Assembly (NCBI GenBank): GCA_963575745.1 | Contig: CAUYUJ010000142.1 | Coordinates: forward strand, 1 to 64,000 | DNA: 64,000 bases | Source of the DNA: Prorocentrum cordatum | Lineage: Eukaryota | Reading direction: 5' to 3' | Shown here: one piece after another, positions 8,770-64,000 of the stretch | Position numbering within the stretch: the first letter of the stretch is position 1 | How the letters are laid out: each line of letters begins with the position of its first letter | Made by a program: the position numbers and the translations under genes | The notes under the pieces: model-generated | Seen by the model: only the letters and a program-made list of their open reading frames with translations | Database searches by the model: none | Told to the model about the DNA's origin: nothing

Positions 8770-9470
<701 letters not shown>

Positions 9471-16559: not shown

Positions 16560-18500
16560 GTGTAATTATTTGTCCCCTTGTACCTCATCTCGCTTATCTG
16601 CTGCCTTCACATTAATGCATGCGATCATTTCGCATCGATTGGTCCACAAAATGTTATTTGGCAACTGCCTGTAGCGCACACAGTCTTCATAAAACTGACT
16701 TCCATCCGAAAATTACGCCAGATTAAACATACGTTGAATTTGCGAGGCATGTGCAGCCTGATGTCGGGCCTATCCTGCCTCCAGACGGACGCATTTGATC
16801 ATTTCATATCGATTCATCCGCATATTTCCTTGGGCAACGGCTTGCAGCTCACGCAATCTTCCGAAAATTCACGTCCATCAGCAAAAATGCAGTCGCAGTT
16901 GTGGTTGCAGACCGATCTAAGGCGTCTAGATACTGTAGACTAGCGCTCCTGATCATTCCCTGTCGATCGGCGTGCATCTCAGCTCCGTAGCTCGCCTAGA
17001 GCTCGAATACAAAAACAAAAAAAAAACGTATCTCAAAAACTTGCAGAGTGCGAATAGTTGTTCAATCACAGCTCTGGTAACAGACCGATCTTAGACGTCT
17101 CGATACTGTAGACTAACGCTCCTGATCACTTCCTGTGAGAAGATGTGCATCTCAGCACACTAGAGCTTCCTGCCATAGACATATATATATACTTGTATAT
17201 GTATGTATATATACACATATGTATAGCATGCGAGCGTGGCAATCCTGCATTCAGCGTGCGCGAGGATGCGAGGTTTCATGGACATGTGCTTGACAGCTCC
17301 TCAGCTTGCGCACAGCTCGAATTCAGTTGAGACAACCACCCGCGCAAGAAAGCACACGACTCAAGTTGAACAGATGTTCGAAGAAAACCTGCCAATGTTG
17401 AGAAGCTCTCGCCACGTGTAGAGCATGATCAATTCATATCGAATGATGTGTTTGACAGCTTGGTAGCTGTTTGCAGAGTGCAGCAAGTTTTTTCGGTCGC
17501 AGCTCTGGTAGCAGACCGATCTCAGACGTCTCGATACTCCAGACTAGCGCTCCTAATCTTTTCCGTTCGCATGGTGCGCCCCCCAGCTCCGTAGATCGCC
17601 TACAGCTCGAATTTAACAAAGAACACCAAGACCAACTCTCAAAAATTTGAATTGAAAAGTGCAAATAATTTGTCGGTCGCAAATCTGGTAGCAGACCGGT
17701 CTGAGGCGTCTAGATACAGTAGACTAGCGCTCCTGATCATTTCCCGTCGATTGGTGTGAATCTCAGCTCCGTAGCTCGCCCCCAGCTCGAATTAAATAGA
17801 GACAACAAGCACCACCTCTCAAAAAAGTTGCGGAGTGCGAATAATTTTAAAGTCGCAGCTCTGGTAGCAGACCGATCTCAGACGTCTCGACACTGCAGAC
17901 CAACGCTCCTGATCATTTCCTGTCGGGCGGTGTGCATCTCAGCACCGTCGCTAGTTAAGTAGAGGAACCCAACATTGTCATCCAAAAAGTTGCAGAGCGC
18001 GAACAGTCATTCACTCGCAGCCCGGGCAGCAGACTGATTTCAGGCGTCCCCATACTCTGGACTATAGCTCCTGATCATGTCCTGTCAGTTGGTGCGCATT
18101 TCAAGTCTGTGGCTTGCCTACAGCTCCATAAGTAGAGAAAATCGACCTCGCCTCTGAAAAAAAAATACAGAGTGCGAATAGCTTTTCGGTCGCAGTTCTC
18201 GTAGCAGACATATTGCAGGCACCTCGATACTTAAGACTAGAACTCCTGAACACTTCCTGTCGAAAGGTGCGCAGTTCGTCTCTAAGTGGCAGCTCGAGTT
18301 ATCTCCCAAAGGTTATCAGGAGGACCCAAAGATAACAAAAAAACAAATGCCGCCCATCGTTTTTTGTTATAATATCCACCCGATTGACCTGAGATCAAGA
18401 TGGCGAGCGGGAGTAAGATCCGAAATGGGTGCAAAAAACACCAAACTGATTGTTGGAAAATCGGAAAGGAAATTTTCAACCGAGCCCTCCCCAGCAAGAC
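16560..18500 (-). mobile_element. Old, diverged HINE-like element(s) with ~175-bp internal repeats
   Basis: Recurrent gcagaccgatct.agacgtct.gatactgtagactagcgctcctgatca units. The block gagatcaagatggcgagcggga at ~18390 also follows the arrays in younger copies. Confidence 0.7.
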
Positions 18501-18530
18501 TGGAAGTCGGCGGCAAACCGTCCACCTTTG

Positions 18531-19852
18531 TTATTTTCTTTGCGCAGAGCCACGGGCCTGAGTCCAGGCCCGCTCGGGCCACAGCCACGCGCGGAGGGGG
18601 GCAGCGAAGCCTGGGGCTTGAAGCACCGCCAAAACACCCTGGGCCAGGTGCTTTGCAGCTCATAGCCCGGCTTGAGTTATCGGCGGCATCACATCACCAG
18701 TAGGAGGGGGCTTACTGATGAGCATTAGAGGCGAGGAGGTAGAGCAGGTTGCACAAACAAATCAAGTACCAAGCCACCGCCACAACCATCGGAACTGAAG
18801 TCATCGTCAAAGTAAACGCGGATTCCTCTGATGGTCCCGCATGCCGTGGCATAGTGACTCTGGCCCCTGCGGGCCAGCCATGTCGAATCATCAGCTCGTA
18901 CTTCCTTCGCGGTAGAACCATGCAACAAGATCACAACCATGGTATGGGGCCCTCAACTGTACATACTGGATTGCGGCAATCATCGTCGCATGCACATCGG
19001 TCGTACCCTGGAATATACCGTTGGCCCAGTTGCACACAAGAAGTGAGTCCCCGAGAATCTCCAGAAGCATCCCAAGGGCAACATGGTTCCAAGTCGTCTA
19101 GTGGTCGTCGTTATACTGCAATCGCTTTGATACCCTCTCTTTCTTCGCCTCCTTGTTCCGTCTGCTGACCTCCTCAGTCACGTCCTCCTTCTCCTCGCTC
19201 CAAGACCCTTTGGGATCCTTCAAGACAAAGTACTCCAGGAAATGTGTGAACTCCCAGACGCCTGAGACCACCCACGCAAACTGCTCCCAGGCATCCTCAT
19301 CCCACAGCAAGTTACAATACCAGTACGCCACTCCCACCAATTCAAACAGAAGGGTCCACGGTCTGAACCCCACAGAAGATGATTTTGCGGGGTATCATCG
19401 AGGAGCCTATTGGGGCTCTCTCGAGTCGTCGTAGTCTGGACGCGTTGTCCTTTTTTCTGAGCCCGCTCGCGCATCTGCCGGATCAGCTGCGGTTTGATTA
19501 AGCCCGAAGCAGGTGTCGACTGAGACCCACACCCAGGCACATCTGGGTCCGCGCACAAAGAAACATCAGCCTGCACCCATTGGGACTTCAGCCGAAGTAG
19601 AGGCCAATACGTTCTGAGAGCATCGTTGCGTTGCAGTACAGATATCCTTGGCTCAGGACCACTGACAAAACAAGACGAGCCAGGGCAAGGACGGCACGCC
19701 CAACATCTTCAGTGCAGCACGCGCCTGGCGACACACCCGATGCACGAAGGTAGTCCGATCCTCCTCTGGGCCCTTTCGCCCCCGCAGCATCTTCGCTAGA
19801 AGCCCCCCATCGCATCTGCGCAAAGCCCCAAAGCTTCTCTCATCCGCAGTCA
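18531..19852 (-). mobile_element. LINE-D: decayed 3' fragment of the same non-LTR retrotransposon group
   Basis: Broken frames give LRRCDGGLLAKMLRGRK (compare FEGMCLLRMSGRRK), ILGDSLLVCNWANG, FYREG..RADD and FDDDFSSDGCGGG. The 3' end abuts a half hairpin at 18500-18530. The 5' side is cut by a HINE end at 19853. Confidence 0.8.
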
Positions 19853-20813
19853 CTGGAAGCCGGCGGTAAACTGTCAACCTTGGTTAGGAGGAAGAGGAGG
19901 AGCAGGAGGGGGACAAGGAGGGAAAAGATCAAGAAAGGCATCGTCATCTCTGAAAGTAATAGTAGAGTATGAATAATTGTCTGGCTCCAACGCTGGGAGC
20001 GTCACGAGTTCGGGCATCTGGATACTTGAGACTAGCGCGTCTGATCATTTCCTCCCCATTGATGTGCCAAGCAGCTCTGCAGCTCATCTGCAGCTCGAGT
20101 TATCTCAAGCAAGATACCACGATCTCTCAAAAATAGCTCTGGTAGCAGACCGAGTTTGGGCGTCTAGATACTTTGAACTAGTGCTTCTGATTATTGAATT
20201 TCGACCGTTGTGACAAACAGCTCTGCAGCTCATATTCAGCTTCAGTTCAGTCCAGAGAACCATCACAATATGAAGAAAACGATTACGAATAGATGTTCGC
20301 ATCCAGCTTTGGTAGCAGACCGAGTTCAGAAATCTAGATACTGTCGACTAGCGCGCCTGATGATAGTTTGCTGTGCCAAAAAGCTTTGTAGCTCATCTGC
20401 AACACGAATTAAGTCAAGATGCTCATCATTCTCCAAAAAAACAGCAGAGTACGAATAGTTTCGCGGACCCAGCTCTGGTGGCAGACCGAGTTCAGAGATC
20501 TGGATACTTGGGACGAACGCACCTGTTGACTCTAGAAGCTTCAGGTGTGCCTGCCAGCTCTGTAGCTATTCTACAGCTCGAATTAAGTTAAGATACCGAC
20601 AGCACGTTTCAAGATGACACTAAACAGCCGATCCCGCCACAATGCTTTTTCGCAGAAATACGCGCCCGATCGACCAGAGATTGAGATGGCGGCGGATAGC
20701 AAGATCTAATGTGGAAAAAGAAATACTGGAGCTCTAACGAACGTTGAAATTTCGAGAAATCAGATTTAAACCGAACAAGATTATGCAAACTTCCGTCGAG
20801 ATTTCTTTGCCAG
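19853..20813 (-). mobile_element. Diverged HINE-like element with ~176-bp repeats
   Basis: Begins ctggaagccggcggtaaactgtcaacc. The body resembles 26800-27200. Confidence 0.7.
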
Positions 20814-20921
20814 CTGGGAGCCGGCGGTGGACCGTCAACCTTGGTTTTTTTTGCGGTTTGCGGTCCGCCACTAGAATCCGAATCCGAATCGGCGGAGCAG
20901 TGCAACTGAGCCCCCACCTTC

Positions 20922-23900
20922 TTAGGTAGGTCGCAGCAGAGCGCACGCCACCTTAGCAGCAGCTCTCGTCAGGGCAGCGCAGGCAGCTAGTTCACAGCAG
21001 GTTACCGTGCTACCTGGAGGCAAGCTCATCGCCTCCTCGGCCACATCGTGCCAGTGGAAGCTCTGCGAGCTGATGCAGGAGGAAGAGGAGGAGGAGGAGG
21101 AGGAGGAGGAGGAGATGGGAAAATCAACCTGCACGCTGGAACCACTACCTAATACGCCAATCTGAAGCCACCACCCGCCTCCACATCCTTCATTACTGAC
21201 ACCCCCATCGAATGCACCACGGAGAGCAGTCTTACGAGTACTGAGGAACTGATCATATGCAAACCAGCGAGTAATAGTTTGGCCACCTCGGGCCTCCCAC
21301 GACAATCTATCCGCACGCTCACTACCCTCACGAAAGAAATGTTTATACAAATTCTGTCCCGATGCAGGTGAGGTCAGTCCCCATCCAGACAACATCGATA
21401 GAGTATTTTGCAGTACTCCCAGCAGTCGTACATACTGCTTGTTACGAATCTGCCACTCAGCACACATCCAGTTAACGACCGTCTTACTAACTCCCAAGAT
21501 TTTCATCCCAGAACGTTCAATACTCTCCCACCTCCACTCCGTTTCATGCTCATAATTAGCGGCAAGACGTTCGCTAATCCTCTCATTCATCTCTCTCTCC
21601 ACCTCCTCCTCCTCCGCCTTCACATACCTCACACCAGGTGGCCTGGGTAAAACAAATAACTCTAACAAGTGTTGCGTGCCAATCACAGTCAGCAGATGTT
21701 TGCAATATTTCTCGCGGGAGCCAGCGGAGCTGTCGAACGATAGGCACCACTCACAACCAAAGAGATCGCACAAACACCAATCCCATACAGTATGTCCACG
21801 GGCGGGGGCACCCATGTTCATGCGTGTGAGATGCTTCCTATCTTTTGAAGGCAACGCAAGAATACATGTGTCCCGATGTTCCGTCCACCTCCCCCTTCCA
21901 TGTAGCATGGTCAGCCTAGATATCATCCATTCACGTGAGATGTCCGACTCCCCGGGTATGGCAGGCTGATCACCCGTTGTCCGCCGTCGACCCCCACTCG
22001 ACATCTGGGAGATTTGGGATGCTAGAGAAGCCGCCGCCGCCGCCATCGCCCGAGTATTTATCTGACGCCGATTTGGCACCGTCTCCACATCCTCCTCAAC
22101 TGTGTGCGTTGTGTACCGCCTCATACGAATACTTGCAGCGACTGAGACATCCTTGGCCCAATCCCAACAACGAGATATCCATATCTGCACCGCACTTCGA
22201 AATCCAAGCTCAACAAACCTCTGCCGTCCAACTTTGGATCGCCTACGTTGAAACTCAGACCATCCTTCAGTTCTCCGCTTGCGTAGACCTGACATCAACG
22301 CCAGGCATCCCCCCTCAAAGAAGTGAACAGCAGCAATGGTGGAATAGTCGGGCGTTCGGCCCTCACAGTTGAATAATAATGCAGCAATCACTTTAGATTG
22401 ATAACGAGTAAATCTCTCAGCCAAATCAATACCAGAGCAGCGATAATAGGCGATTTCCCCAAAGAATACCTTCTGGGCGTTCTGGAGCATGGCCTCTGAA
22501 TCCGAGTGGTCCTTCCTGGTCTCCTCCAGAGTGGCCCCCAGGATCTCAAACGACTGAACACGCGGCAGGACCACCTCGCGGGCCCCGAGAGCAGGATCGC
22601 AAGACGGTGCAGCACACGAATATCCTGTTCGGGGGACGGCGGGATGCCAGGCGGCGCAACAAAGTAAATATACATCAAGGATTCCGGCTTCCAGGTCATT
22701 CCTGCATTCATCAGCGGGATACTCATGTCACGCACCATCAATTCGAGCTCGGAGCGAGTCTTCGCATACAATAAGAGATTATCTGCCCAGAAACTATGGG
22801 TCATACGCTCACCGTTGAACATGCGCTCATCGTTTTCCAACTTGATACCGTACTGCGTATCCTGCCTCCACCTGTCAACCACATCTCTCCAGAGTACGAT
22901 AGATACTGCTAGGAAAACCATCGGCCCCTCCACTCCTCCCGTTCGAATAGACTTGTCCCAATAGACAGCTGAAGATGCCTCGATGCCCTCGAAGCTGGCC
23001 ACACACTGATTATCAATCATGGGTTCAATCAACGCCACAATGAGATCAACTGGTATGTCAAGAGCACGAAGACAGCGCATGGCGAGGCACGGGGTAACAT
23101 TATCGAATGCTTGTAAAATATCAAGATTGGCAAGCCACAAACTGTCTCCTTTGCCCCAGACAGCGGAGTGCTGGCTGAGCCTTTTGGCAACGCTGGTGAT
23201 TTCCGATGTTTTTCGTCCCGATCTGAATCCGAACAGGCATACATAGTGTCGGTGCTTCTCAATCCTCTTCTCAATCATCATCACAATAAATGTCATGTAC
23301 CATATCATAAGACACGACTGTAGACATAGTACACGTGTATCTGTCAAGTGTTGTATGTCCATTTCCTTAGGCATGAGCGTGGCAGCTAGTTGACGCCAAC
23401 TGTCTGGGCAACATAACCTGCGGGAATACACACCATGGAAGCTCACCAGAACACGTCGGAGAGATGCCCACGAGAGCTGTTTCAACATCATGACAGTGAC
23501 GTTGTCGGGGCCTGGGGCCTTTCCCGTGGACAGCTTCGCCCTCGCCCGCAGCAGGAGCGACATCGAGAACACCTCCGAGGACCCACTTCGCAAACATAGA
23601 CCACGCAGCGACTGTAGCTCACGAAGGGTCACCTCCCTGGCCTCGGGGTCCTCAACCTTAGCCTTCATGTGCCCCAATATCTCGCCCCCCCACTCCTCGC
23701 GGTTCTGAGACTCCATCCCGTTGGCAAGGATCAGCGTATCCGTCTTGGCCCTCCTCCTCCTCCTCGTGTTCATCTCCGTCCTCCAGCCTCCCCCTTTCTC
23801 TCCTAACTATATTTGAGTACCGTTTGGCCTCCTCTCTATCCCCACGACGAAGTGCTTCGCGTTTACTTTCCTGGGCGGCCCAGTGGATCTCGGATTTCTT

Positions 23901-25076
23901 TGGTACATTATTTCTGGGATTGGTATCCTTCTGGGGGGTCTCCTCGGCGGCCTTTATGAGGTCAGGTCCTATCATGTCCAACATCTCCCGTCGATCCTCA
24001 GGGCCAGCATCTCCCTGGCACAATGCACGGTAACGACTGCCCCAATCGTCCATGTTCTTCGCAAACTCGAGCTGCGACACCGGTTGCAAGTAGATGAATT
24101 TTCGAGCAGGCTGGGTCCGTCTCTTCGCAGACGGCGCACAAGACAAGCGAACAACTAGGCAAGCGTGGTCAGACAGCGCACGCTCGCATCTGCTGCATGG
24201 GTGCTCCGTCCAGGCGTGGCCCACTTCCGCAGGCAGCATCCAGCCTACAGTGAGCTCCTGCCTGTGTAAACGACGGCTGACACCAACATAGTCAAGTACC
24301 TTCACCACCCCCGTACTTGATTTGAAAGTAACCCCCCTCTGCCCAAATGTGTTCTCCATCCTTATGCCCCAGAGCCCGCAGAAGTCCAGTAGGGCCCTCC
24401 TCATAGATTGCAGCCTAGACGCCCGTCGGATTTCGAAGCCCGAGACAACCCTATGAGGTCTTGATTTACGTGCACAACGTTTTGTTTGAGTCATATACGG
24501 GTTGCCGTCATCCGATCCTTCCTCCATCCCAGTATCCATGTCCGTAGTACCCCCAGCGATCCCAGACGCCTCCAGAAGCCCTGATCCAGTGACTCTGAAG
24601 CCGTTGACCTCCGAATCTGGCTCGAGTTCGACGTTAGCATCTGTCAAGAAGACCAGGTCCTGCGGCTGCTTCGGGAACTTAGACCTATGAGTGCGAAGCA
24701 CTTGGGATTTATCAAACAATATCTGTTCATACACATCATGTTCATGCTGTTCTTCAGTAAGGGTACGAATACTCGCATGCGGCATATATGCAACAATAAC
24801 CGTAACACTAGAATAACTACAAATCACAAAACCTTTGCCACGATATGTGGCCCTGAGCGAGTCTCTCCGAGACTTAGACCTGATCACCGCAGCCTTCCGA
24901 CAAGTACTCCGAAAAATTGTGTGACCTCGCATGTTGAGATCACGAGCTGAAAGGAACTGGCACTCGCACAACCCCGCGAGTCCCACATCTAAGCGACGTA
25001 GTGAATTAATTATGTCATGGCCGTTCTCTGCACCTGCCCGACGCACACTCCATGACGCAATGGCGTCGTGGCACCT
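20922..25076 (-). pseudogene. LINE-A ORF2 (APE-RT-RNase H), broken by two frameshifts
   Basis: APE motifs: IASWSV, LCEC, AYMP, TDANVEL, LDY, SDH. RT motifs: KAPGPD, LDILQAFDNV, SIRTGG, WADN. RNase H motifs lie in 20922-21500. Frame changes near 23765 and 22580. Confidence 0.9.
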
Positions 25077-26624
25077 CTAGTTCGTACTGGAAATCCTCGC
25101 TCGCAACTCATCAATGTTGATCCCTGGCTCAAGCTGACTCATTGCACGACTAATCCCCCAGCAATTCTGAAGAAAGAACTTGGCCACGATCATCCCTGGA
25201 GGGGGTAGGTGATCACTGGAGCCCCACATGAACGTGATCGGCGGTCCCGTCTCAGCCCTAAGATTTGAATGGTGCTTCTTGAAGCTCTTGAACTTTGCCT
25301 GAAGGATCCCAGCGGCATCCAGATGGGGCTTCTTCCAGGGGGGGGCCTCCACGTGAACCTTGAGGGCCCTGGGAGCATGCTGGAGTTTGTTGTCGGCAAT
25401 CGCGGCGACGAGTCGACGACGGAAATCCCACAGCTGGTCACTGGTAACCCGTTTCTGGAAATAGAGCCGAGCACGCGAATCACCACATGCCTCTCGACCT
25501 GTGTTGAACTTCTTGGATTGGTTCAGGTCAAGAAGCTCCTTGACACCACTGAACCATTCTCCAGCAAGGACCTCATTCAGGAGTGAATTCAACGCCTGCT
25601 GCGATGACATCTCCTCCTGACGCTTCTCTGCATCCCGCCAGTCAGTCACCCATCCCTTGAGCTCGACGAATGACGGAGTGAAATTCTGCATGGACTCACG
25701 AGTCTCCGCCGAGGACGCCGTCGTAGAGGTGCCTGCTCTGGGGGGCCCACCTGCAGGAGCCTGCTGGAGCTGAATAATCTGAAGCCTCTGATCCTCCACC
25801 TTCTTAGTAATGGCATATATGTCCGTCATCGCCTGCTGCACATTTTTCTCGACCGAATCAACACGAGCATTGAGCTGGGCGCCGAGATCCGCGATGCTTC
25901 GATGAGAAGACTGGAACCCCTCAGTCATCTTACCTCCCAGAGATGCTACAAGCCCAGTGATCTTATCCATACCCCTAGTCATGGCCTCCTCGAGGCCCTC
26001 GACAGTCTGAACTTTGACACGTTTCCCCTCTGGGACCTCCTCCTCCTTGGCTCCTGGAACGGGCATATCAGTGGCATCCATGGCGAAAATCTCTGGGACC
26101 ACAGCAGCTGATGAGGCAGCCATCTTACCGTCTGAGATGTTGCGAGGGATATCCCACTTCTCACAGAACGATGGATCTTCTCGAGTGCGCTTTAGATGTG
26201 CACCTAACTGATGAAAGTTGTATGGGGCACCAGGATTATGGGGTAGAGTAGGGGACAGATCAGGTGGTCCAGATGGTATGTCAACTAGAGAATATTTATC
26301 GTCGCGACGTGATACACAAACCTGTCTGGCATGATATTCCCACTTCCCAGTGTCCGAAGTTCGATCCCCAGCGGTCCAGATCAATCGATAAACTCTGGCT
26401 CGTCCCGTTGAGCTCGACGCGGCAAAATGCCGCACGCAATGCACACAAACAAATACAAACAAAGCGCAGGCGGCCTGCTTGCCTCGGACTCGCCGAAGTC
26501 GCCGAAGATGCCGAGCGGCCCGATCGCCACGCGCCCCCGCGCGGCAGGCCAGGCCACGGGCAGGCTGCCTGACCGCACAATGCGGCTCGAGCCGCACGAG
26601 AAAGCCCAGAGTTCCCGGCGGCAA
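25077..26624 (-). CDS. LINE-A ORF1 (coiled-coil plus conserved C-terminal domain; start uncertain, first ATG at 26123)
   Basis: Open 515 codons. The motifs PSFVELKGW, VEAPPWK and ETGPP have counterparts in ORF1 of LINE-B and LINE-C. Confidence 0.85.
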   Translation of the reverse strand: MPPGTLGFLVRLEPHCAVRQPARGLACRAGARGDRAARHLRRLRRVRGKQAACALFVFVCVHCVRHFAASSSTGRARVYRLIWTAGDRTSDTGKWEYHARQVCVSRRDDKYSLVDIPSGPPDLSPTLPHNPGAPYNFHQLGAHLKRTREDPSFCEKWDIPRNISDGKMAASSAAVVPEIFAMDATDMPVPGAKEEEVPEGKRVKVQTVEGLEEAMTRGMDKITGLVASLGGKMTEGFQSSHRSIADLGAQLNARVDSVEKNVQQAMTDIYAITKKVEDQRLQIIQLQQAPAGGPPRAGTSTTASSAETRESMQNFTPSFVELKGWVTDWRDAEKRQEEMSSQQALNSLLNEVLAGEWFSGVKELLDLNQSKKFNTGREACGDSRARLYFQKRVTSDQLWDFRRRLVAAIADNKLQHAPRALKVHVEAPPWKKPHLDAAGILQAKFKSFKKHHSNLRAETGPPITFMWGSSDHLPPPGMIVAKFFLQNCWGISRAMSQLEPGINIDELRARISSTN

Positions 26625-51500: not shown

Positions 51501-51926
51501 CCCCCGGAGCTCTCCAGGGAAGATGCCCCGTCCCAGAGGTTCTTTGCTCTCCGGGTTTTTCCCGGAGAGCTCTCTGAGAGCTAGAGGGTTTTTCCCAGAT
51601 AGCTCTCTGAGAGCTAGAGGGTTTTGGATTAGAAGCTGGACGGTGGTGTGCCTGCCAGCAGCCCATCTCCGCCGGTCCAGGATCCTCGCAGGGGCTTGTA
51701 AAATCTTGCAGCCCGTCCGGGAGAGCTTCGGGCAAGCGTCCACGCGTGCCTGCACGCGTGCAAGCTTGCGCGGTAGCGTTCCTGGCCGCGCTTCAGAAGC
51801 GCTGCATGGGGAGCTTCCCAGAGCCCCAGAAGAGCTTCACGAGAGCGTCCAAGGGCTCGCCGGGAAAGTTTTCCGATATGCGTTTCTTTTGCTCTCTGGT
51901 CTCTCCGGGTTTTGGACGCTGCCAAG

Positions 51927-52977: not shown

Positions 52978-55466
52978 TAGATTAGAAGCCGGCCGGTGGT
53001 GGTGCCCGCCAGAAGCCCGTCTCCGCCGCTCTACGATCCCCGCAGCGAGCTGCCGGTGCCGGCAGCGGGTTCGGGAGCGCTTCCAGCACCCATCCACGGG
53101 GGCCTGCAAACGTGCAGGCACGCGTGGAAGCGTTCCCAGCAGCGCTTCAGCAGCGCTTCGGGGGAGCTCCCCAGGAGCTCTCCAGGGAAAATTTTCCGGT
53201 CCAGAGGTTCTTCGCTCTCCGGGTTTTTACCTCGTAGAGCTCTTCGTCATAGATGAGCTAGGGGAATTCCGGCGCAGCGTGGAGCTACTTGGTCCACCTG
53301 GCCAGAAAAGAAAATGTGTAACTGTGGTCGGTTCTGCTAAGATTTGAAAGATATGACAATTTATTTCAAGAAAGCAAAATTTTCGCACGTGTAGTGGTTA
53401 TGGCGTGTCTGCCACTCAAATTCTCAGGTCCGTAGATGCAGTATAATTATTAAAGCACTTGGGGGGACTGTGTAACTCGTAGAGCTTCCCTTAGCTAGTT
53501 GCTGGAAGCTTAACGGTCGAGCTGTCTCTCCCAATATAATTGGCGCCGGCGGTAAACCGTCAACCTTGTCACCGCCAGGAACCTCGTAGGGCTCCTTTCA
53601 CGCGTGAGAGTGCTCAGAGTCGAAAGAGAGAGCTTCTGGAGGCATTTCTCGAAGAAGACAAGATTGTTTTTTGTCATGTCGATGTGAAGTTCGTTCCGCC
53701 AATTGTTTTGACAGTGAAAATGCGCCTACAGAGCTCATATTGAGACAGAGAGGCGCTAATACTCGTTTACAGGTGCGCGAAATCTGCTTTCTCAAAATAA
53801 ATGGAAAAATATCTTTCAAATATTTGCAAAATCACCCAAACTGGCGCCGGCGGTAAACCGTCAACCTGGTCACCGCCGGAACCTCGTAGAGCTCCTTGCA
53901 CGCGTAAGAGTGCTCAGATTCAAAGCAGACAGCTTCTCAGACCATTTCTAGAAAAACGTCATATTTGGATTTCTCGGTGATGTCGGTTCCTCTAAATGTT
54001 TGGATGGTAAAACTCTCTCGAACGAGCTGACCTGCTCGCAGAAAAGAGTTAAGATACTAATGCTCGGAGTAAAAATCTGCTTTCTTAGAATGAATTGTCA
54101 AATATCCTTAATTTTTCGCAAAGCCACCCAAAAGTTACCACTTTGTCCTTTCTGGCCGGGTCGGCCAACTGGCGCCGGCGGCGAACCGTCAACCTAGTCA
54201 CCGCCGGGAACCTCGTAGAGCTCCTTACACTGGTAAGAGTGCTGAGAATCGAAGTAGAGTCAAAAAAAAAATCGGGAATCTTCATTTTCGATTTTTTGGA
54301 TGTTCATATTCGCTCAGTCCGGGAAAGTCAACTCTCAAGAAAAAGCATCGGCAGAGCTGAGCTGCTGTCAGAGAGGAGTTCATATGCCAATGCTCGGCGT
54401 AAAAATCTGCTTTCTCAAAATGAATGGTCAAATATCTTTCAAATCTGCGCAAACCCGACCCAGGGTCACCACTTTGTCCTTTCTGGTCGGGTCGACCAAC
54501 TAGCTCCACCCCGCGCCGGAATTCCTCTAGCTCATCGATAACGAAGAGCTCCACGAGGTAAGTTACCACTTCGTCCTTTATGGCCGGGTGGTCCAACTAG
54601 CTCCACCCCGCGCCAGAATTCCTCTTGCTCATCGATGCCGAAGAGCTCTACGAGGTACACTGGCGCCGGCGGTGAACCGTCAACCTGGTCACCGCCGGGA
54701 ACCTCGTAGAGCTCCTTGCACGCGTAAGAGTGCTCAGCATCAAAAGAGAAGGCTTCTGGAAGCATTTCTCGAAAAGAGAAAACATGTTTTTTTCTTGTCG
54801 ACATAAAGTTGGTTGCGCCAAGTGTTTTGACAATAAAAATGCATCTAGAGAGCTCATATTAAGACGCTGAGGCCCTCATAGTCGTCTACAGGTGCGAAAA
54901 ATCTGCTTTCTCAAAATAAATGGTCAAATATCTTTCAAATATTCGCAAAACCACCCAAAAGTTGCCACTTTGTCCGTCGGGGCCAGGTCGGCCAACTGGC
55001 GCCGGCGGTGAACCGTCAACCTGGTCATCGCCGGGAACCTCGTAGAGCTCCTTGCACGCGTAAGAGTGCTCAGCATCAAAAGAGAGGGCTTCTGGAAGCA
55101 TTTCTCGAAAAGAGAAAACATGATTTTTTTCAGGTCGACATAAAGTTGGTTTCGCCGAGTGTTTCGATAGTGAAAGTGCACCTAGAGAGCTCATATTAAG
55201 ACACAGAGGCCCTCATAGTCGTCAACAGGTGCGAAAAATCTGCTTTCTCAAAATAAATGGTCAAATATCTTTCACATATTCGCAAAACCACCCAAAAGTT
55301 GCCACGTTGTCCGCCCCAGCCGGGTGGTCCAACTAGCTCCACCCCGCGCCGGAATTCCTCTAGCTCATCGATGCCGAAGAGCTCTACGAGGTACTAGCTC
55401 CACCCCGCGCCCGAATTCCTCTAGCTCATCGATGCCGAAGAGCTCTACGAGGTATTCGTGGCCTCC

Positions 55467-57170
55467 ACTTGGTGGCGCCCAAAACCCGGAGAGCGAAGAG
55501 ACCCTTCGGGAACGGGAGATCTTTCCTGGAGGGCTCTGGGAAGCTCCCCTGCAGCGCTGCTGAAGCGCTACCAGAAACGCTTCCATGCGTGCCTGCACGC
55601 TTGCAGGCACGCGCGGAAGCTTGCCGGAAGCTCTCCCGGACCAGCTGCCGGCTCAAACGAACTCCTGCGAGGATTCTGGAGCGACGGAAAAGAGCTCCTG
55701 GCGGGCACCACCACCGTCCGGCTTCTAATCGTAAACCCTTTAGCTCTCCGCGAGCTCTCCGGGAATTTCCGCGTTACCGTTGCACTGGCGCAGCCCGTGC
55801 CGTCAGACTGACTCCTCCCAGCGCTCTCCATCATAAGTGTTCACGTTTCCAAGTTCGCGGAGAGCTCTCTGAGAGCTAGAGGGTTTTAGATTAGACGCCG
55901 GACGGTGGCGGCGCCGCCGGGGCTTGTAAAACCTCGCAGCCCGTCCGGGGGAGCTTCCGGCAAGCGCCCACGCGCGCCCGCACGCGCGCAGGCACGCGCG
56001 GAAGCGTTCCTGGCAGGGCTTCGGAAGCGCTGCAGGTGAGCCCCCAGAGCTCCAGAAGAGCTTCACGAGAGAGTCCAAAAGCTCGCCAGGAAAGCTTTTC
56101 GGTCTGCGTTGCTTTCGCAATCCAGTCTCTCCGGGTTGTGGACGCTACGAAGTACCACGTAGAGCTCTTCGACATCGACGAGCTAAAAGAATTCGGGCGC
56201 GGGGTGGAGCAAGCTGCTTCCCGGAAAGCTTTCTGATAGCTAGATGGTTTTCGATTAGAAGCTGGACGGTGGTGGTGCCCGCCAGCAGCCCACCTTCGCT
56301 TGTCCACGATCCTCGCAGGGCCTCGCCTGAGCCGGCAGCGCGTCCGGGAGAGCTTCTGGCAAGAGTGCACGCGTGCAGGCACGCGTGCAGGCACGCGTGG
56401 AAGCTTTCCCGGCAGCGCTTCAGAGGCGCTGCAGGGGGGCCCCCAGAGCCCAAGAACACTTCATGAGGGCGTCGGAGGGCTCGAAAGCTTTCCGGCGAGT
56501 GCCCTCTTTTCCCGGGTCTTTCCCGGAGAGCTCTCTGAGACCTAGAGGGTTTTAGATTAGAAGCCGGACGTTGGTGGCGCCCACCAGCAGCCCATCTCCG
56601 CCGCTTAGAATTCTCGCAGCGCCTCGCCCGTCCCGGCAGCGGGTCCGGGTAAGTTTCTGGCAAGCGTCCATGCGTGCCCGCACGCGTGCAGGCACGCGTG
56701 GAGACGTTCCCGGTAGCTTTTCAGGAGCGCGGCAGGCCGGGAAGCGCTTCACAGGAGAGTCCGAGGGCTCGACAGGAAAGTTTTCGAGTGTGTGCTGCGT
56801 GTTCTCTTTGCTCTCTGGGAAACTCGTAGAGCTTCCCTTAGCAAGTTCCCAGAGAGCTCTCTGAGAGCTGGAGGGTTGAAAATTAGAAGCCGGGCGGTGG
56901 TGGTGCCCGCCAGCAGCCCATCTCCGCCGCTCCACGATCCCCGCAGCGACCTGTAAAACGTCGCAGCGGGTCCGGGGGAGTTTCCGGCAAGCGTGAACGC
57001 GTGCCTGCACGCGTGCAGGCACGCGTGGAAGCGTTCCTGGCAGCGCTTCAGAGACGCTGCACCGGAGCCCCCCAGAGCGCCAGAAGCGCTTCACGGGAGC
57101 GTCGGACGGCTCGCCAGGAAAGCTTTCTCGCGTGTGTCCTCTTTGCTCTCCGGGTTTGGACGCTACCAGG
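55467..57170. repeat. Family-C GC-rich interspersed repeat cluster (also at 33830-34160, 51000-51926, 52980-53230 and 63057-63640)
   Basis: Shared blocks gcacgcgtgcaggcacgcgtggaagc, ggtggtggtgcccgccagcagccc and gagagctctctgagagctagaggg, and the end motif ctctccgggttttggacgctaccaag. Confidence 0.85.
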
Positions 57171-57671
57171 TAACTCGTAGAGCTTCCATTAGCAAGTTGT
57201 TGCTGGAATCTTAAGAGTAATAACTCGTAGAGCTTCCCTCGGCAAGTTGTTGCTGGAAGCTTAAGAGTAATAACTCGTAGAGATTCCCTGAGCAAGTTAT
57301 AAGATGTGGAGCTTCCTTAGCTAGTTGCGGGAAGCTTAAGGGAAATTCCGGCGCGCTGGAGAGCTAGTACCTCGTAGAGCTCTTCGGCATCGATGAGGTA
57401 GAGGAATTTCGGCGCGGGGTGCAGCTAGTACCTCGTAGAGCTCTTCGGCATCGATGAGCTAGAGGAATTCCGGCGCGGGGTGCAGCTAGTAACTCGTAGA
57501 GCTTCCCTTAGCAAGTTGTTGCTGGAAGCTTAAGAGTAATACCGGCGCGCTGGAGAGCTAGTTCGCAAGAAAAATCTCGACGGACCCTGCGCTGACTTTT
57601 GGTCGGTTGAAACTTGGTTGGGTGTTGGGGTCGGCTACACAGGGCGCGTGCGCCCTAGCCGTGCAGAGTCC

Positions 57672-60600
57672 CTAGGGTCCCTCACGCCCTCTCAACCTCT
57701 TTGGGGTTGGAGGCCCGATGATCTCAGAGATAATCTGCCGAACACCTTGGAGCAGGCGTTCACAAGCTGTGAGCTCGCTATCTGTAACAGTGGCCCCCAG
57801 AGGGAGTAAAGAAGCCTCCTGGAAAACTCGTCGCCAGTGGTTGTCCCCAAATGAGACCTCCACATAGCAACCTAGAGCAGAGCCTTCAACACTCACGCCA
57901 CCGTCCCATCCTCCACGGATACGTTTGATACAATGTCTCTGTTGTCGCAAATATCTGAAGTCAATCCATCTTCCCGTCCTTCCCCTCCTCGCCTCCCAAG
58001 TCAACTCATCCGCAACACAATTGAACTCTCTGTAGATATGCTTCCACGGATCCGTCCCTACAGTGGCACACCTGATGTCGTAATCCTCAGCAAGTTGATT
58101 CATATCGTTTTGTAGACCATGCACTCTCCTGCGGTACGAACGATCACGGCATTCCCAGATCCCTCGGGCCCAGTTCACCACACACATACTATCACCAGTC
58201 ATTTCAACCAACAATGAGCCCTCCGAGCCCTCCTGCCAGACAGTTTCGTTGTTATATCCGTGGGCAATACTACGAGCGAGCCTGTCGGAGTCCTCAGGGG
58301 AGCCCCACGTATCCACAGGACAAGGAGCACAGGGCGGTTTCCTGAAGATGGGCTCCCATCGAGGCTGTATTTTTGTCACGCACGCAACTACATTCCACCA
58401 GTCCGTCGCATTCCACTTGATGCTGAACCAGCGTAAATTACCACTCGCCGCCAGCATAAGACAATGCCAGCTGTCAGTGCTTGCATGCGCTCTCCCTCCC
58501 ACTCTCCTCGTACCTTCCCTCCTCCTGGCTCCCGTGAACATGGATACAAGTGTGTCCCTCCGTAGTGACCATTCCCCCGCACAGTGTAACATGGCCTGAG
58601 GCGTCTGGCGCCAGGCTCGTGCTCCACGCATGTCCGTGGAGGCGAAGGCCCGATCATGAAACTGGGCCAGCTCCAACGCAAACTCGAAATTGGCTCGGAC
58701 CACCTTCTCTAGGAGACTGCAGTGGCCAGCCTGCAAGAATAGCTCGTAGGACTTCGGTGTGGTCCTGTCCCTGAACTCCTCCCACGTCTCCTCCTCCCTC
58801 TTGTGTAATCCTCGCATACCGTTGAGACACCTCCCCTCCCAGACCTTAATCCTCTCCAGCAGTCGTAGATTGCACGGCCAGCCTATACATCCGTGGCACA
58901 CCACAGACTGCACACGAGCGGCATACCTGCGAAACTTCTCTTTGAGTGAGACCGATCCGGAGCGATAAAACTGGATGTCAGCAAAATAGGCCTTCCTCCC
59001 TTTCTCCAGTCGATGATACAAGCCGTGATAACCTTTGATTTCCGAACTGAGCTTCACTCCTAGTACCTCCACCTCCTCCTTCCTCGGCATTACGACAGTC
59101 GAGCGCAAGTGCTCTGGGAGATCCTCATCTCCAGAAATCGCACAGATGGCTGGCGAGAGCGGGCAGAGCAGCGGCGGATCGCCACATGTGTACGTCTGGC
59201 CAAAAAGTACATACGCCAAAGAATCCTCCTTCCAGTCCATCCCTGCCCGTCTGAGTGTTACCGTCATCATACCGATCATCTGTTGTAGCTGGAGTTGCGA
59301 TGCAGCACAGAGCGTAACATTGTCCGCCCACAAGAAGTGGTGTACAAGAGCACCGTCCGTCCCCTCCCCTTCCAGTCGGACACCGTATCCTAAGGTATCC
59401 CAAGTCTGAATCACAGATCCCCAGATGGCCTCCAAGACAATATTGAAAAGTATAGGTCCCTCCTTACCTCCCGTTCGGACCGATTTATTGTATCTCACCT
59501 CATCGCCGCACACGTTCTGAAACTCAAAGGTAGCAATGTTATCCAGCATGGGCTCCACAATGGCTCTAATGAGGCACACAGGGTACTTAAGGTACAGCAT
59601 GGCCTTGATGATAGTGCGCAGTGTGACATTATCGAATGCTTTGTGTATGTCCAAGACTCCCACGTGCATAGACTCCGCCTTCCCCCACACATTTGCATGT
59701 CTAGTAAGATGTGATAGTGGTGCCGTGACGTTAGTAACCTTCTGATCCTTCTCAAATCCGTATGTGCACAACCGTCGGTTCACAGGAAATGCATCAATAA
59801 ACTGCAACACACATGCCATGTACCATTTACTCATCACACTGATCAGGCAAATCCCTCTGGTGTTGGAGAGTCGTGTAGCATCCCGCATCTTCGGCACAAG
59901 TTGGATACTGAGCTGCCTCCACGTCTCAGGGCTGGAGGCTCCCTGCTCGAAAATCCTCTGGAAAGCACGCCGCACAAACAAGAGGCTCCTCCACGGCAAC
60001 TCACGAATGACCTCAGCAACGACTCCATCGCTACCGGGTGCCGTGCCAGGCTTCAAAGACGCACGAGCCTGCATGAGCATGCCCATCGTGATGACTCTTC
60101 CCTCCACCCCACGGTCGTTGTGTCTGAGTTCCTGAAAGGCCTCCAAAGTCCGTTTTTCCTCCTCCGAGTTCGTGTAAGACGCCGTCGCATACCTAGTGAT
60201 CTCCGTACTCCACCTAGTCCTGTCCATTGTCAGCACACCCTCACACTCCAGCTCCTTGAGGATACACCGTGAGGTCTTACTGGATCCCTTGTGGTCCTGC
60301 AGGAGTTGGTTCCTCCTATGCTGTCTCCTAAGGGTCTTCCTCCTACGCAGCAGTTGTTTACGGGCATTCCCAAGGGCCCCACGCCTGATGGCAGACTCCA
60401 CCTCTATGAGCTCCCTGGGCCTCTGAATAGGTTTGCAGTTGGGGCGCCCCTTGGCGTGGTCCACAAGCTTTGCCGTCTCCAAGAGTACCCGTCCGACCTG
60501 CTGCAGGTCCGCCCCTACCGTGTCCGATGCAAGCCCCTCAATCGACACATCCGCAAGCACACGAAACATGTTCCTCGCCGCGTCATCCGTCGGCTGCCAG

Positions 60601-61455
60601 CCTACCATGGACACAGGGCGGGGCGGCAAACACTGGGCGCCTGATCTCCGTAGTCTTGAGATTTACCCAGACCAGAGCGTGATCACTATAGGCACTGGCT
60701 TTTGCACGTATACCTGGCGTAGCTTTGATGGGTTCCACAAACTGGACCTGGCATCTCATTTCCTGGTGAGCTCTTGCCTCATCCGCGCACCAACGTGTAG
60801 GGATGAGTATATAGTCAAGCACACGCTGCACATGTGTGGAACAGTACGGTATATGTGTGATACGTCGATCTCCATATGTGTTCGCCGCACAGATCCCCCA
60901 AGTACTCATGAACCTCATAAGCATGTCCCTCCTCTCTGCATGGTAGTTCGCCTCCTCCCTCCTCCCGTCCACCTGCATAAGACCTCCTCCCGTCATTCCC
61001 AGCATATCTGGTTCAAGTTCCGTCTGAGCATCCATCCCCACCCATGGTATGACTCCAGCCTGTGTAGTTTGAAACATAGTAACACTGCACTTAGTAAGTA
61101 CATCTAAGTATTCCCCCAAGTGGTCAACATCACGCATCACGCATGGTAGATACACTGATGTAACTAGAGCACCCCTGAATTCGACACACGCAAATCGTAC
61201 CCCACTCCGTCGTGCAATCACATGTGGTGCCCAATCCCTGCACCATGCAACCGCCGCCTTGGAGCAGGAGCTATAGTGAATCTCCCATCCACATCTGTTA
61301 AAAGTATTTGCACTGGTATGCTCACACTCTTGCAGACACACCATTTGAATTGACCTGGCTTCACATGCAGCGACCAGGTTGGGTACTTGACCGTCGGATA
61401 TTTTCTGCACATTCCAGGTTGCGACAACGGTCTCTGTCGCAGCCCTACCGCCCCG
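57672..61455 (-). pseudogene. LINE-C ORF2 (APE-RT-RNase H), one frameshift near 60600-60640
   Basis: APE motifs: VATWNV, CLQE, SVYLP, GMDAQ, LDY, SDH. RT motifs: APGSDG, LDIHKAFDNV, SVRTGG, WADN. RNase H motifs: GDS, REFNCVAD, WDGG, TDSE. Confidence 0.92.
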
Positions 61456-62970
61456 TCAATGATTCGGGCACCGTAGTGTCTGAAGAAACTGCACCTGGTT
61501 AATATCGGGCTCAACGTGTGTCAAATTGTCACCATAGAGGTTCCATCCTTTTGTCGGTCCCCATTCTGCAATCAATGTCTTTTGTGTAGTATCATCAGCA
61601 TTCGGCATATACCACGTATATGTCATTGGCGGACCCGTCTCACCTCGAAGAATAGCCGTCGCATTTCCCTTGATATCAGAAAATAGTGCTTGAAACCTTC
61701 ATACCGCCCGAACATGTTCTATCTTCCATGGCTGGCATTCAACTTGAAATCGCACATTGGGAGGCAATGAAGTGAGTCCCCGCCTGTAATCATTCTCCCA
61801 CACACGTTTCGCTTCCCATAGGATCTCAGAGGATGTACCTGGCTTGAAATAGATCCTACCCCTCGTGCACGGCCAATATCTACCAGTATTCTCCTGAACC
61901 GTCCGATCCAAGTCCAGTGCCACCCTCTGTGTAGCATCAATTTGTTTAGAGTCAATAAGACCATTCATCGCCGTCGTCAGTGCCTCCTGTGAAAGAGCCT
62001 CCCGCTGACGTATCTCACGGTTCCTCCATCCCTCCCTTGAAACCCATCCCTTGAACTCAACATAACGTGGATTCCAAGCAGGATCGTGCCTGTCCGTACC
62101 CGCCTTCGTGGATCCACTTGCTACCGACAACCCGTCCCCCTGCTTGAGCTTCTGAACTTCATTGGTGAGGTCCTGGATCGCCGATTCTGTTTTCGATACC
62201 CTGGAGTCCAGGGATGTTTTCAGACCGTCCATTTCCGTACGAATAGAGTTCCTGAACGATTGCATGTCTGCCGTCATAGTCTGTTGTCCCGTCATGATGG
62301 ATCGAAACATCTGTTCAATGTCAAGGCCAGCTTCCTGGGCAACCTCATTCGCACCCAATGTCTGTCCCGCACCTCCTCCTTCTCCTTTCCCTCCTCCTTT
62401 GACATTACGAGCACGGACAGCTCTAGCAAACGCCCCACCCCCATCATCAATTGTCATGTCCTGGCCCATCGCATGCAAGCCTGGAGCACCTGAAACTGAA
62501 GAACCTGCTGGCATCGCTGGTGCAGCACCTGAAACTGAAGAACCTGCTGCAGCCATCTTCCTTTTGTGACTGCGTAATATATTGAAATCGTAACCTTCAC
62601 CCTGCACGAAGTGGTTACGCAAGAAATTGAAATCGTAACCTTCACCCTGCACAAACGGCACTGTTGGTGTGAGCGATGGCACACAAATAACAGCTCTCCT
62701 GTCACCTCGAGGTGTCCCGACCTGTCTGGCAAGATAGTCCCAGTCCGCGTGACTGAAGTCGGACCCCCAGCACTCCGTCGTTCCAAGAGAGAAGAAAAGA
62801 GACAATTGCAGCAGTAGCAATAACAATAACAAGTGCAGGCGGCCTAGCACACGCAATAACAATAACAAGTGCAGCGGCCTAGCTGACCTCGACCTCGCTG
62901 AACCCGAAGAAGACGAAGAAGGCAGCGATGGCTGCCGCGCCGCCGTCCCGCGGCGGCGCGCCCCCCACAC
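61456..62970 (-). pseudogene. LINE-C ORF1 with an internal TGA at 61699-61701; true stop at 61456-61458
   Basis: PRYVEFKGW and VECQPWKIEH. After the TGA the frame continues RFQ...RGETGPPMT...EPDINQ, matching the C-terminus of LINE-A ORF1. Confidence 0.85.
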
Positions 62971-63056
62971 ACGCTAGACGCCTGTGGGATCCAGACGCCT
63001 TGATCCAGACTTGAGCCAAGAGCGTCCAAAACCCGGAGAGCAAGCCTTGATCCAAA

Positions 63057-64000
63057 CTTGGTAGCGCCCAAAACTCGGAGAGCGAAGAGACCGTCGGGAG
63101 GGGGAAAATATTTCCTCGAGAGCGCTGGGGAGCTCCCCTGCAGCGCTGTCGAAGCGCTGCCAGGAACGCATCCACACGCGCCTGCACGCGTGCAGGCACA
63201 CGTGGACAGCGCCCCCGTACCAGCTGCCGGGTCGCCGGAGTTTCTGCGAGGCCTGTGGACCGCCGTGGAGGAGCTCCTGGCGGGCACCACCACCGTCCGG
63301 CTTCTAATCTTAAACCCTTTAGCTCTCAGCGAGCTCTCCGGGAATTTTTTTTCCCGGAGAGCTCGCTGAGAGCTGAAGGGTAAGATTAGAAGCCGGACGG
63401 TGGTGGTGCCCGCCAGGAGCTCCTTTCCGTCGCTCCAGAATCCTCGCAGGAGTTCGTTTGAGCCGGCAGCTGGTCCGGGAGAGCTTCCGGCAAGCTTCCA
63501 CGCGCGCCTGCAAGCGTGCAGGCACGCATGGAAGCGATTCTGGCAGCGCTTCTACAGCAGATTCTGGAAGCTATTCTGGAAGCTCCCCTTCAGCAGCGCT
63601 GCAGGGGAGCTTCCCAGAGCCCTCCAGGAAAGATCTTCCAAACCGTAGAGCTTCGCTTAGCAAGTTATTGCTGGAAGAGAGTAATACCTCGTAGAGCTCT
63701 TCGGCATCGATGAGCTATAGGAATTCGGGCGCGGGGTGCAGCTAGTACCTCGTAGAGCTCTTCGTCATCGATGAGCTACAGCAATTCCGGCGCGGGGTGG
63801 AGCTAGTTGGTTCCCGGAGAGCTCTCTGAGAGCTAGAGGGTTTAAGATTAGGCGCGTTCAGCTGTTGAACACAGAGGTCTGAACTCGGTCTGCTAGCCGT
63901 GCTAGGTCCGCAAACCTATTCGTTTTATTCGAGTCATCTTGACAGACGCTCTCGGTTTTCTGTACTTAACTCGAGCTACAGGACAGCTACAGAGCACGTA
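63057..64000. mobile_element. Family C, B and A repeat fragments running to the window edge
   Basis: Same blocks as in 43410-57617. Confidence 0.8.

Follow-up and report, generated by a model that had tools for sequence, protein, structure and literature searches.

Introduction

What determines where long interspersed nuclear elements (LINEs) have settled in a 64,000-nucleotide stretch of Prorocentrum cordatum DNA (GenBank assembly GCA_963575745.1, contig CAUYUJ010000142.1, positions 1 to 64,000 of the forward strand; hereafter the window), and what are the repeats in which they lie? Strict LINE target specificity is known mainly for ribosomal RNA (rRNA) and small RNA genes, telomeric repeats, and microsatellites, and the classic example of one that resides in a DNA transposon is Tx1L in Tx1D. 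A preliminary description of the window had proposed that its LINEs are site-specific parasites of the termini of Helentron-like elements. Our analysis leads to a more precise reading, to which we assign a probability of roughly 75%: a clade of LINEs encoding an apurinic/apyrimidinic (AP)-type endonuclease (APE) uses target-primed reverse transcription to integrate at a single defined position, always in the same orientation, in the 3'-terminal hairpin of Helitron2/Helentron-like repeats. The LINEs themselves probably represent a real target-specific clade.

Results

Three of four LINE 3' ends meet one base of a repeated hairpin

A tBLASTn search of the window with its own LINE open reading frames (ORFs) as queries returned four LINE copies, all on the minus strand as previously described, and none elsewhere. 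They are referred to here as copy A (20845–26625), copy B (37351–43409), copy D (57618–63053), and the truncated copy (18531–19851); the LINEs lettered C and D in the preliminary description probably correspond to our copy D and truncated copy, respectively.

The repeats that surround these copies carry a hairpin, the left half of which is CCGGCGGTAAACCGTCAAC. With up to 3 mismatches allowed, this half occurs 30 times (29 on the plus strand and 1 on the minus strand), against 0 expected from 100 shuffles, and the complementary arm lies within 4–6 nt in 26 of the 30. The exceptions are the left halves at 18507, 20821, and 37328, each with a LINE 3' end next to it, and the one at 19860, where about 130 nt are deleted. 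An intact example is the 34-nt palindrome at 45848–45881 (CCGGCGGTAAACCGTCAACCTTGGTTACCGCCGG). The stem comprises 10 bp and, beyond a bulged A, two further pairs (CC/GG); it closes a loop, GTCAACCT(T), whose central 4–5 bases differ among hairpins (CTTGG, CTGG, CTTTC, CTTCG, CAGG, and others). When 26 hairpins from the window and 11 from a second genome, described below, were folded as single-stranded DNA, the arms paired in all 37, with energies of −6.3 to −15.2 kcal/mol.

Three of the four LINE 3' ends fall at the identical base of this hairpin. Read on the plus strand, the junctions join CCGTCCACCTTTG to TTATTTTC in the truncated copy (18530/18531), CCGTCAACCTTGG to TTTTTTTT in copy A (20844/20845; LINE side also written TTTTTTTTGCGG), and CCGTCAACCTGG to TTTGTTTG in copy B (37350/37351; LINE side also written TTTGTTTGTTTGG). 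The fourth junction, that of copy D, joins GGTTGAAACTTGG to TTGGGTGTTGGGG at the homologous CTTGG of a related repeat terminus, and all four copies are co-oriented. The insertion point is the 3' edge of the loop, where the plus strand is broken between the inner GG pair and the TTACC arm. It is here, directly behind GTCAACCT(T)GG, that the poly-A or (CAAA)n tail is attached; the break in the other strand lies 4–8 bp off, which leaves a short duplication. The preliminary description had placed the 3' ends at one position in the loop; the shared position holds to the base for three copies, and the site is more exactly the 3' edge of the loop, not its middle.

The far sides of copies A and B complete the picture. 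In copy A, the left half (20821–20839) and the right half (26631–26641) lie 5.78 kb apart, CTTGG is present at both 20840–20844 and 26626–26630, and the right side reads CTTGG-TTACCGCCGGG from 26626. Copy B carries CTGG at 37347–37350 and CTTGG at 43410–43414, its right side reads CTTGG-CTACCGCCGGG at 43410–43425, and its halves are 6.06 kb apart. Both distances and duplications agree with the roughly 6 kb and 5 bp reported earlier for these two copies. Since the flanks together with the duplication rebuild a complete hairpin, the LINEs entered pre-existing hairpins and not the reverse.

Copy D is flanked by an 8-bp duplication, AAACTTGG, at 57610–57617 and 63054–63061. Its right flank is the end of a repeat of the GC-rich family C (63060–63347 matches 55471–55768 at 81.6%), and an uninterrupted family-C terminus at 55455–55495 on the minus strand, homologous to this flank, reads CTTGG and then TGGCGCCCAAAACCCGGAGAGC. 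This locates the insertion at the CTTGG of a family-C terminus, where the preliminary description had also put it. Judged from the letters, CTTGG-TGGCGCCCAAAACCCGGAGAGC is visibly a diverged version of CTTGG-TTACCGCCGGGAACCTCGTAGAGC. The part of the site common to all four copies is the arm plus the CCAAG side, in the sense of the LINE.

On either side of the truncated copy, whose 3' end lies in the hairpin at 18507–18530, there is a 35-bp direct repeat (18499–18533 and 19852–19886, 85.7% identity). The repeat extends from the usual nick position to the final base of the host unit, as though the second strand had been broken exactly at the unit boundary; to the right of its second copy, the other arm of the hairpin and about 130 nt of the host are deleted. 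Independent, co-oriented copies are found at the same base, or in copy D at the homologous terminus, with duplications of 4–8 bp, or of 35 bp in the truncated copy.

Such a pattern could also arise without sequence recognition, if cruciform extrusion or a nick by the rolling-circle transposase exposed a free 3' end that any LINE reverse transcriptase might use. The hairpin is indeed stable, with the site at its loop–stem edge; according to the literature available to us, binding to hairpins is common among HUH enzymes; and the 35-bp duplication of the truncated copy, with its end precisely at the host unit's final base, would fit a pre-existing break. The constant base and orientation and the regular 4–8 bp duplications are instead what two staggered enzyme cuts would be expected to leave. 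Moreover, the endonuclease domain is retained in deeply diverged lineages and in environmental relatives, and the site of copy D keeps one sequence side while having no comparable hairpin. Insertion driven by structure or damage is, in our estimate, very unlikely, and targeted integration by the LINEs is preferred.

A short motif does not account for the placement

Chance was estimated from the 45,401 non-LINE bases of the window, both strands, and the 30 hairpins, which gives a probability of about 3e-4 for one exact hairpin hit. Outside the LINE bodies, hairpin loops hold 6 of 110 CTTGG sites, 12 of 505 CTGG sites, and 2 of 44 CTTTG sites, and the joint chance of three hairpin hits under a short-motif preference is about 6e-5. 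With so few of the short-motif sites in loops, the short motif alone does not account for LINE placement. The preliminary description had called for such a comparison with background; like every other part of it that could be examined in the window, this one came out in its favour.

The same numbers bear on the idea that there is no real targeting, and that LINEs with a loose preference for a short motif survived only in gene-free arrays. The array does contain all four copies, the remaining 18 kb being free of them, and it accounts for a very large part of the repeated sequence in public runs, as a retention bias of this kind would have it. The position within the array is nevertheless exact to the base, and the loop counts with their joint chance of about 6e-5 leave a retention bias scarcely credible as the whole explanation.

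The LINEs belong to separate old lineages of one clade

Copies A, B, and D are full-length, copy A being frameshifted with a poly-A tail and copy B ending in a (CAAA)n tail, whereas the truncated copy is 5'-truncated and decayed and aligns by tBLASTn with the C-terminal part of copy A at 34–38% identity. Besides ORF1, each long copy has an ORF2 region that codes for three domains: an AP-type endonuclease, a reverse transcriptase, and, at the C terminus, an RNase H-like domain. In copy B, ORF1 is located at 41624–43348, the endonuclease ORF at 39707–41620, and the ORF running from the reverse transcriptase to the RNase H-like domain at 37345–39831, with one frame break relative to the endonuclease ORF. 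The corresponding ORFs of copy D lie at 61702–62973, 60586–61455, and 57675–60662, all on the minus strand. A single ORF2 frame change occurs in copies B and D at different places (39707–39831 and 60586–60662), inside the start of the reverse transcriptase in copy B and just after the endonuclease in copy D; it may be due to mutation, assembly error, or a programmed shift.

The reverse transcriptase is of the LINE type: RVT_1 scored above the Pfam cut-off in the three long copies (E 3.1e-10 in A, 3.1e-12 in B, and 3.2e-13 in D). A family profile matched human L1 ORF2p, its best solved relative, over the endonuclease and reverse transcriptase (E 1.1e-30), which is a hint, though no more than that, of membership in the L1/Tx1 clade. 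For the endonuclease, the family profile (alignment A1) matched L1 endonuclease chains (E 2.7e-7 to 9.4e-6) as well as exonuclease III chains, in agreement with an APE assignment; a search of the PDB with a single endonuclease ORF sequence gave 0 matches.

Protein identity between the copies is only 23–40% by tBLASTn, and self-BLAST revealed no nucleotide match of at least 600 bp between LINE bodies. In a quick maximum-likelihood tree of 36 rows, copies A, B, and D fell in one clade of 8 rows with a Shimodaira–Hasegawa-like approximate likelihood ratio (SH-aLRT) support of 99, interleaved with 5 environmental proteins and separated by path lengths of at least 2 changes per site. The low protein identity, the lack of long DNA similarity, and the tree together indicate separate old lineages and independent insertions, as the preliminary description had concluded from the divergent proteins.

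Read on the minus strand, the host repeats match the terminal layout of Helitron2/Helentron elements

The hairpins are borne by non-autonomous repeats in a head-to-tail array at 18361–57617 on the minus strand, which was traced from left-half matches, a tandem-repeat table, self-BLAST, a motif map, and a junction listing, and which resumes after 63.05 kb. Its members are a short family of about 340–400 bp, a long family of about 1–1.2 kb with a 177-bp internal satellite, and the GC-rich palindromic family C; the segments at about 51.9–53.2 kb and 57.1–57.6 kb are inverted. Family C forms large inverted repeats with facing arms of about 250 bp (51010–51830, 55471–57100, and 63060–63560) and often directly adjoins the inverted-repeat motif of the other families. 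Rfam and transfer RNA (tRNA) scans found no Rfam family and no tRNA in the window, so the repeats are not arrays of known small-RNA genes.

Two local features of the array were also recorded. Between the host flank of copy B and the next hairpin, a tandem repeat with a period of 351 bp (44282–45540, 3.6 copies, 95% identity) is present, each unit of which ends with the inverted-repeat motif of the host. At the left array edge (16387–16495), a 12-bp minisatellite, CTGGGCGTCGGG, in 8 copies resembles the host terminal octamer ACTGGGCG and is followed by what appears to be the start of a unit with a deleted hairpin.

A reference intact terminal module is found at 45840–45897 on the minus strand. 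Its plus strand reads ACTGGGCG, the hairpin (45848–45881), GAG, and ACTCGTAGAGCTTCC, which on the minus strand corresponds to the 3' inverted repeat, three nucleotides, the hairpin, and the last 8 nt of the unit; the predicted fold (−13.0 kcal/mol) has a 10-bp stem, a bulged A, and 2 bp. On the plus strand, a listing of the 30 sites brings out a conserved block in which ACTGG(G)CG precedes the hairpin and three bases separate the latter from (A)CCTCGTAGAGCTC or ACTCGTAGAGCTTCC; the sequence to the left of the block varies among copies. With a variable left neighbour and a conserved block, the hairpin belongs to its right-hand neighbour. The possibility that the hairpin is a mere abutment of two element ends was ruled out on the same grounds, as the whole palindrome moves with the right neighbour and the left one varies.

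Read on the minus strand, and hence co-oriented with the LINEs, a point not made in the preliminary description, a unit starts 1–3 nt before a 13–15-nt inverted repeat (ACCTCGTAGAGCTC or ACTCGTAGAGCTTCC), contains tandem repeats in its interior (177 bp in the long family), and ends with the partner inverted repeat, three nucleotides, the 34-nt hairpin, and 8 nt (CGCCCAGT). In Helitron2 elements, one repeat lies 0–2 bp from the 5' end and its 3' counterpart just upstream of the 3' hairpin (Bao and Jurka, 2013; PMC3627910). The HINE/DINE-1 derivatives of Helentrons have subterminal repeats, a 3' palindrome, and central repeats (Thomas et al., 2014; PMC4067079), and between them these sources place the 5' inverted repeat of Helitron2/Helentron elements 0–4 nt from the 5' end. 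The host repeats have a 5' inverted repeat within this distance and a subterminal 3' inverted repeat directly upstream of the 3' hairpin, and two families with different inverted-repeat sequences share this one layout. Read on the minus strand, the host repeats fit the Helitron2/Helentron terminal layout, and the Helentron-like label given to them earlier fits the anatomy published in the available text of both papers.

Beyond the paired inverted repeats and the central tandem repeats, the host repeats resemble Helitron2, Helentron, and HINE/DINE-1 elements as described in these sources in forming non-autonomous high-copy families and in the compensatory changes of their hairpins. Elements of the Helitron2/Helentron type are, moreover, known in the green alga Chlamydomonas (PMC3627910, PMC4067079). 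Unlike Helitron2 and HINE, the host units follow one another closely, head to tail, with none of the T-rich flanks that the same texts describe for those elements; their hairpin, with a 10+2 bp stem and 34 nt, exceeds the HINE palindromes of 5–10 bp (PMC4067079), and the sequence of its loop has been kept in two genomes that differ greatly in base composition.

The LINEs could be site-specific and yet reside in something else, such as some other HUH-type transposon, an element whose inverted-repeat ends abut to form the palindrome, or a satellite that has conserved a hairpin for protein binding. No RepHel gene (for a Rep-helicase, with an endonuclease in Helentrons) or other transposase ORF was found in the window or in the four contigs (15 kb) of the second genome, so the Helitron2/Helentron label draws on anatomy alone. 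Helitron2/Helentron elements insert between T residues and leave no target-site duplication, and several array junctions on the minus strand read CCCAGT followed by (T)ACCTCG; these are array junctions only, no solo insertion with an empty site having been found, and the ends and target preference of the host repeat are deduced from arrays. Hairpins involving the 5' inverted repeat were predicted at all four unit starts folded (two families), no better than in shuffles (z −0.7 to −1.7), and the unusual length of the 3' hairpin points the same way. Four features nevertheless match Helitron2/HINE in order and spacing, namely the 5' repeat 1–3 nt from the start, the 3' repeat upstream of the hairpin, the tandem repeats, and the head-to-tail arrays, and this layout is kept by two families with different inverted repeats. 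Replitrons, another group of algal HUH transposons, were rejected as the host family since they carry direct terminal repeats instead, as far as the available descriptions go. A host outside the Helitron2/Helentron group appears unlikely, and we continue to treat the repeats as Helitron2/Helentron-like.

LINE 5' ends and a proposed integration mechanism

The 5' ends of the three long copies, all on the minus strand, contain sequence copied from the adjoining host. In copy A, 26609–26621 is an inverted copy of host 26634–26646 (13 of 13 bases match) and creates a new predicted hairpin across the junction (−18.6 kcal/mol, z −4.4). Copy B carries at 43367–43409 two direct copies, of 24 nt and 18 nt, of host 43426–43458, both 100% identical. 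In copy D, 63021–63041 is a direct copy of the adjoining family-C sequence 63063–63083, with 19 of 21 bases (90%) matching. The complete identity to the local flank in copies A and B suggests that these bases were made during integration. They may derive from template switching onto the upstream target, or alternatively from read-through transcripts.

We propose that the LINE endonuclease would first nick the plus strand after GTCAACCT(T)GG, which is the bottom strand relative to the LINE. The freed 3' end would then prime reverse transcription at the RNA tail, and the other strand would be cut 4–8 bp further on. The endonuclease, perhaps together with other ORF2 parts, may recognise the conserved hairpin sequence, mainly the arm plus the CCAAG side, which is the likeliest recognition element as it is common to all four sites. 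The repeat arrays could offer a harmless and very abundant landing site, as ribosomal DNA does for R1 and R2.

An inserted LINE holds the arms of the host 3' hairpin apart and should destroy the rolling-circle end signal. If a rolling-circle transposase needs this hairpin, the LINE would act as a parasite of another transposon. More tentatively, and with less than even confidence, one may picture an old LINE clade with a permuted RNase H that co-evolved with Helitron2-like transposons: it would recognise the loop and arm of the 3' terminator hairpin, enter co-oriented, which would let it be transcribed through the host unit, and disable the unit end, its sub-lineages tracking terminus variants (main families versus family C).

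The C-terminal domain is predicted to be a permuted RNase H-like fold

The C-terminal RNase H-like domains are located on the minus strand at 57717–58211 in copy D (alignment A3, AlphaFold2 model, and RVT_3), 37345–38124 in copy B, and 20925–21704 in copy A. In the three LINE lineages and 11 environmental relatives, the RNase H motifs are permuted, with DS and N..AD first, followed by DGG and a glutamate helix. The AlphaFold2 model (mean predicted local distance difference test score, pLDDT, 80.5; core >90) shows the order b4, helices, b5, aE, then b1-b2-b3 and aA, and not the canonical RNase H order (b1-b2-b3-aA-b4-...-b5-aE; D, E, D, D). In agreement with this, Pfam RVT_3 matched 8 of 14 members at profile positions 64–119 of 123 only, that is, its C-terminal half, and RNase H chain 3u3g was matched (E 2e-4) over the first half of the domain only.

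Structure searches with the model were weak. Queried with the RNase H-like model, Foldseek produced no clear match, and VIA-align gave its best Z score (5.7) to unrelated folds and Z 3.7–3.8 to RNase H chains, over the first half only; protein atlas scores of 0.85–0.87 are leads only. Weak results of this kind are expected of sequential fold searches if the fold is permuted. The domain is modelled as an RNase H-like fold that is circularly permuted and not a canonical member. Judged by titles and the opening of abstracts, no paper returned by our literature search on circularly permuted RNase H in retrotransposons deals with the RNase H of LINEs.

The hairpin, the junction, and relatives of the LINEs outside the window

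When the hairpin half was searched for in a collection of prokaryote genomes, 7 loci were obtained; viral contigs yielded 0 matches. Five matches in GC-rich bacterial contigs comprise the 20-mer only, with no second arm, and were taken as chance. The other two (L005 and L008) fall in one metagenome-assembled genome, G001, four contigs of which (L005, L008, L026, and L027) look like AT-rich eukaryote-like arrays, that is, mis-binned contamination of a bacterial bin. These contigs (15,260 bp, GC 41–43%), here called the second genome, contain 30 hairpin-like sites and 16 exact core matches, against 0 for a reversed control.

The stems of the second genome differ by paired changes (CCGGCGG/CCGCCGG versus CGAGCGG/CCGCTCG and TAA/TTA versus TGA/TCA; also CGCGCGG/CCGTGCG), and the loop GTCAACC and the following ACTCG.AGAGC are kept. 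Compensatory stem changes around a kept loop indicate that the hairpin is functional, a conserved, structure-dependent signal in at least two genomes. Because it covaries, this hairpin could in addition help to trace the autonomous partner of the highly abundant algal repeats.

Relatives of the LINEs are widespread in marine environmental data, where 3419 proteins matched at E <= 0.001, commonly at about 30% identity. The nearest labelled are 10 protein fragments at 82–96% identity to the window LINEs, all from a data set labelled Pyramimonas sp., so that on these matches alone the window would probably be assigned to a related green alga; a word-index protein search returned 3 matches only. 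A scan of Joint Genome Institute (JGI) metagenomes with alignment A2 gave 2 loci, one (L001) covering the interior only and the other (L002) with poly-A at the contig end and no flank. The LINE share in public runs was at most 0.16, and no RNA run was listed.

Public contigs of four runs were compared with window positions 18301–38300. Summed word depth, which is not equivalent to copy number, was 1e4 to 1.8e5 for the host array and several hundred to 1500 for bins of LINEs A and B, against 4–6 for two apparently unique, identical pieces, so that on a rough reading both LINE families and the host are high-copy. The public contigs differ from the window by about 1% for family B and 6–10% for family A. 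The depth of 0–0.13 for the truncated copy suggests that this copy is old or unique.

One contig bridges the junction itself. Record 30 of run X9 (463 nt, depth 22) covers 37327–37759, with the 3' end of copy B, its tail, and the whole left hairpin half, and then continues for 29 letters unlike the window; interior B contigs of the same run have depths of 12.6 and 10.2. This fits most B copies sharing the hairpin junction while their outer flanks differ. Two further contigs, X3 record 23 and X9 record 25, break off at a LINE tail or within it (at 37350 and 20847, respectively) and are informative neither way; like the stretches without contig cover, they were left out of the evidence.

Weighing the reading

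Besides the missing RepHel gene, several observations weigh against hairpin-targeted integration as proposed here. The LINE evidence consists of only four copies in one window and one bridging contig, and the window itself is mostly array, which confounds regional accumulation with targeting. The left flank of copy D is the interior of an inverted repeat and not a hairpin half, so that its target is shared on one side only. Exo_endo_phos scored under the Pfam curated cut-off in copies D (E 0.0061) and B (E 0.014) and had no match in copy A. All three long copies have at least one ORF2 frame break and may be inactive. Finally, a LINE profile search found no LINE in the second genome's 15 kb of hairpin-bearing contigs.

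The left part of the window

The first part of the window (1–16300) is GC-rich (60–65%), contains numerous long ORFs that overlap on the two strands, and has internal repeats (1–880 versus 8770–9470 at about 79%). A Pfam scan of 17 ORFs in the first 16 kb revealed no clear family.

Comparison with known systems

If the reading is correct, the terminal hairpin of a rolling-circle element would be a new class of LINE target, and one mobile element would be seen to make use of another's replication signal and to disable it. On the more tentative picture of co-evolution, this would represent a standing relationship between a retrotransposon and a DNA transposon, a parasite of a parasite, at a signal that algae of widely differing base composition have retained. 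The enzyme involved would be a natural endonuclease with a long recognition site, roughly 20–30 bp, that is possibly structure-dependent. Our literature search found no paper on a LINE that targets a Helitron-type terminus; its coverage of subscription journals and Repbase reports was thin, and absence is not proven by it.

R1, R2, TRAS/SART, and others target rRNA genes, small RNA genes, telomeric repeats, and microsatellites (PMC3706591). As far as the available part of that review describes them, they share with the window LINEs a strict position and orientation in an abundant, conserved repeat, which provides a harmless multicopy landing site. The target in the window is instead the terminal signal of a mobile element, in a region with no Rfam family or tRNA. 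The L1-type LINEs Zepp and ZeppL of green algae are also clustered in localised, repeat-rich regions (bioRxiv 10.1101/2022.06.16.496473). Compared by description only, from the accessible text of the same preprint, ZeppL clusters consist mostly of the LINE itself, and no second transposon is described as their target to the exact base.

The nearest precedent is Tx1L, an endonuclease-type LINE of Xenopus laevis with a highly specific enzyme that inserts at one sequence inside the DNA transposon Tx1D (PMC1950540, in the part available). In both systems, an APE LINE occupies one site within another transposon. The principle of an APE LINE with strict target specificity is therefore already known, and no principle is overturned here. 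Unlike Tx1D, the host in the window has Helitron2/Helentron-type ends, and the site is its 3' hairpin. Several LINE lineages at only 23–40% identity use this one site, and they carry a C-terminal RNase H-like domain with permuted motifs.

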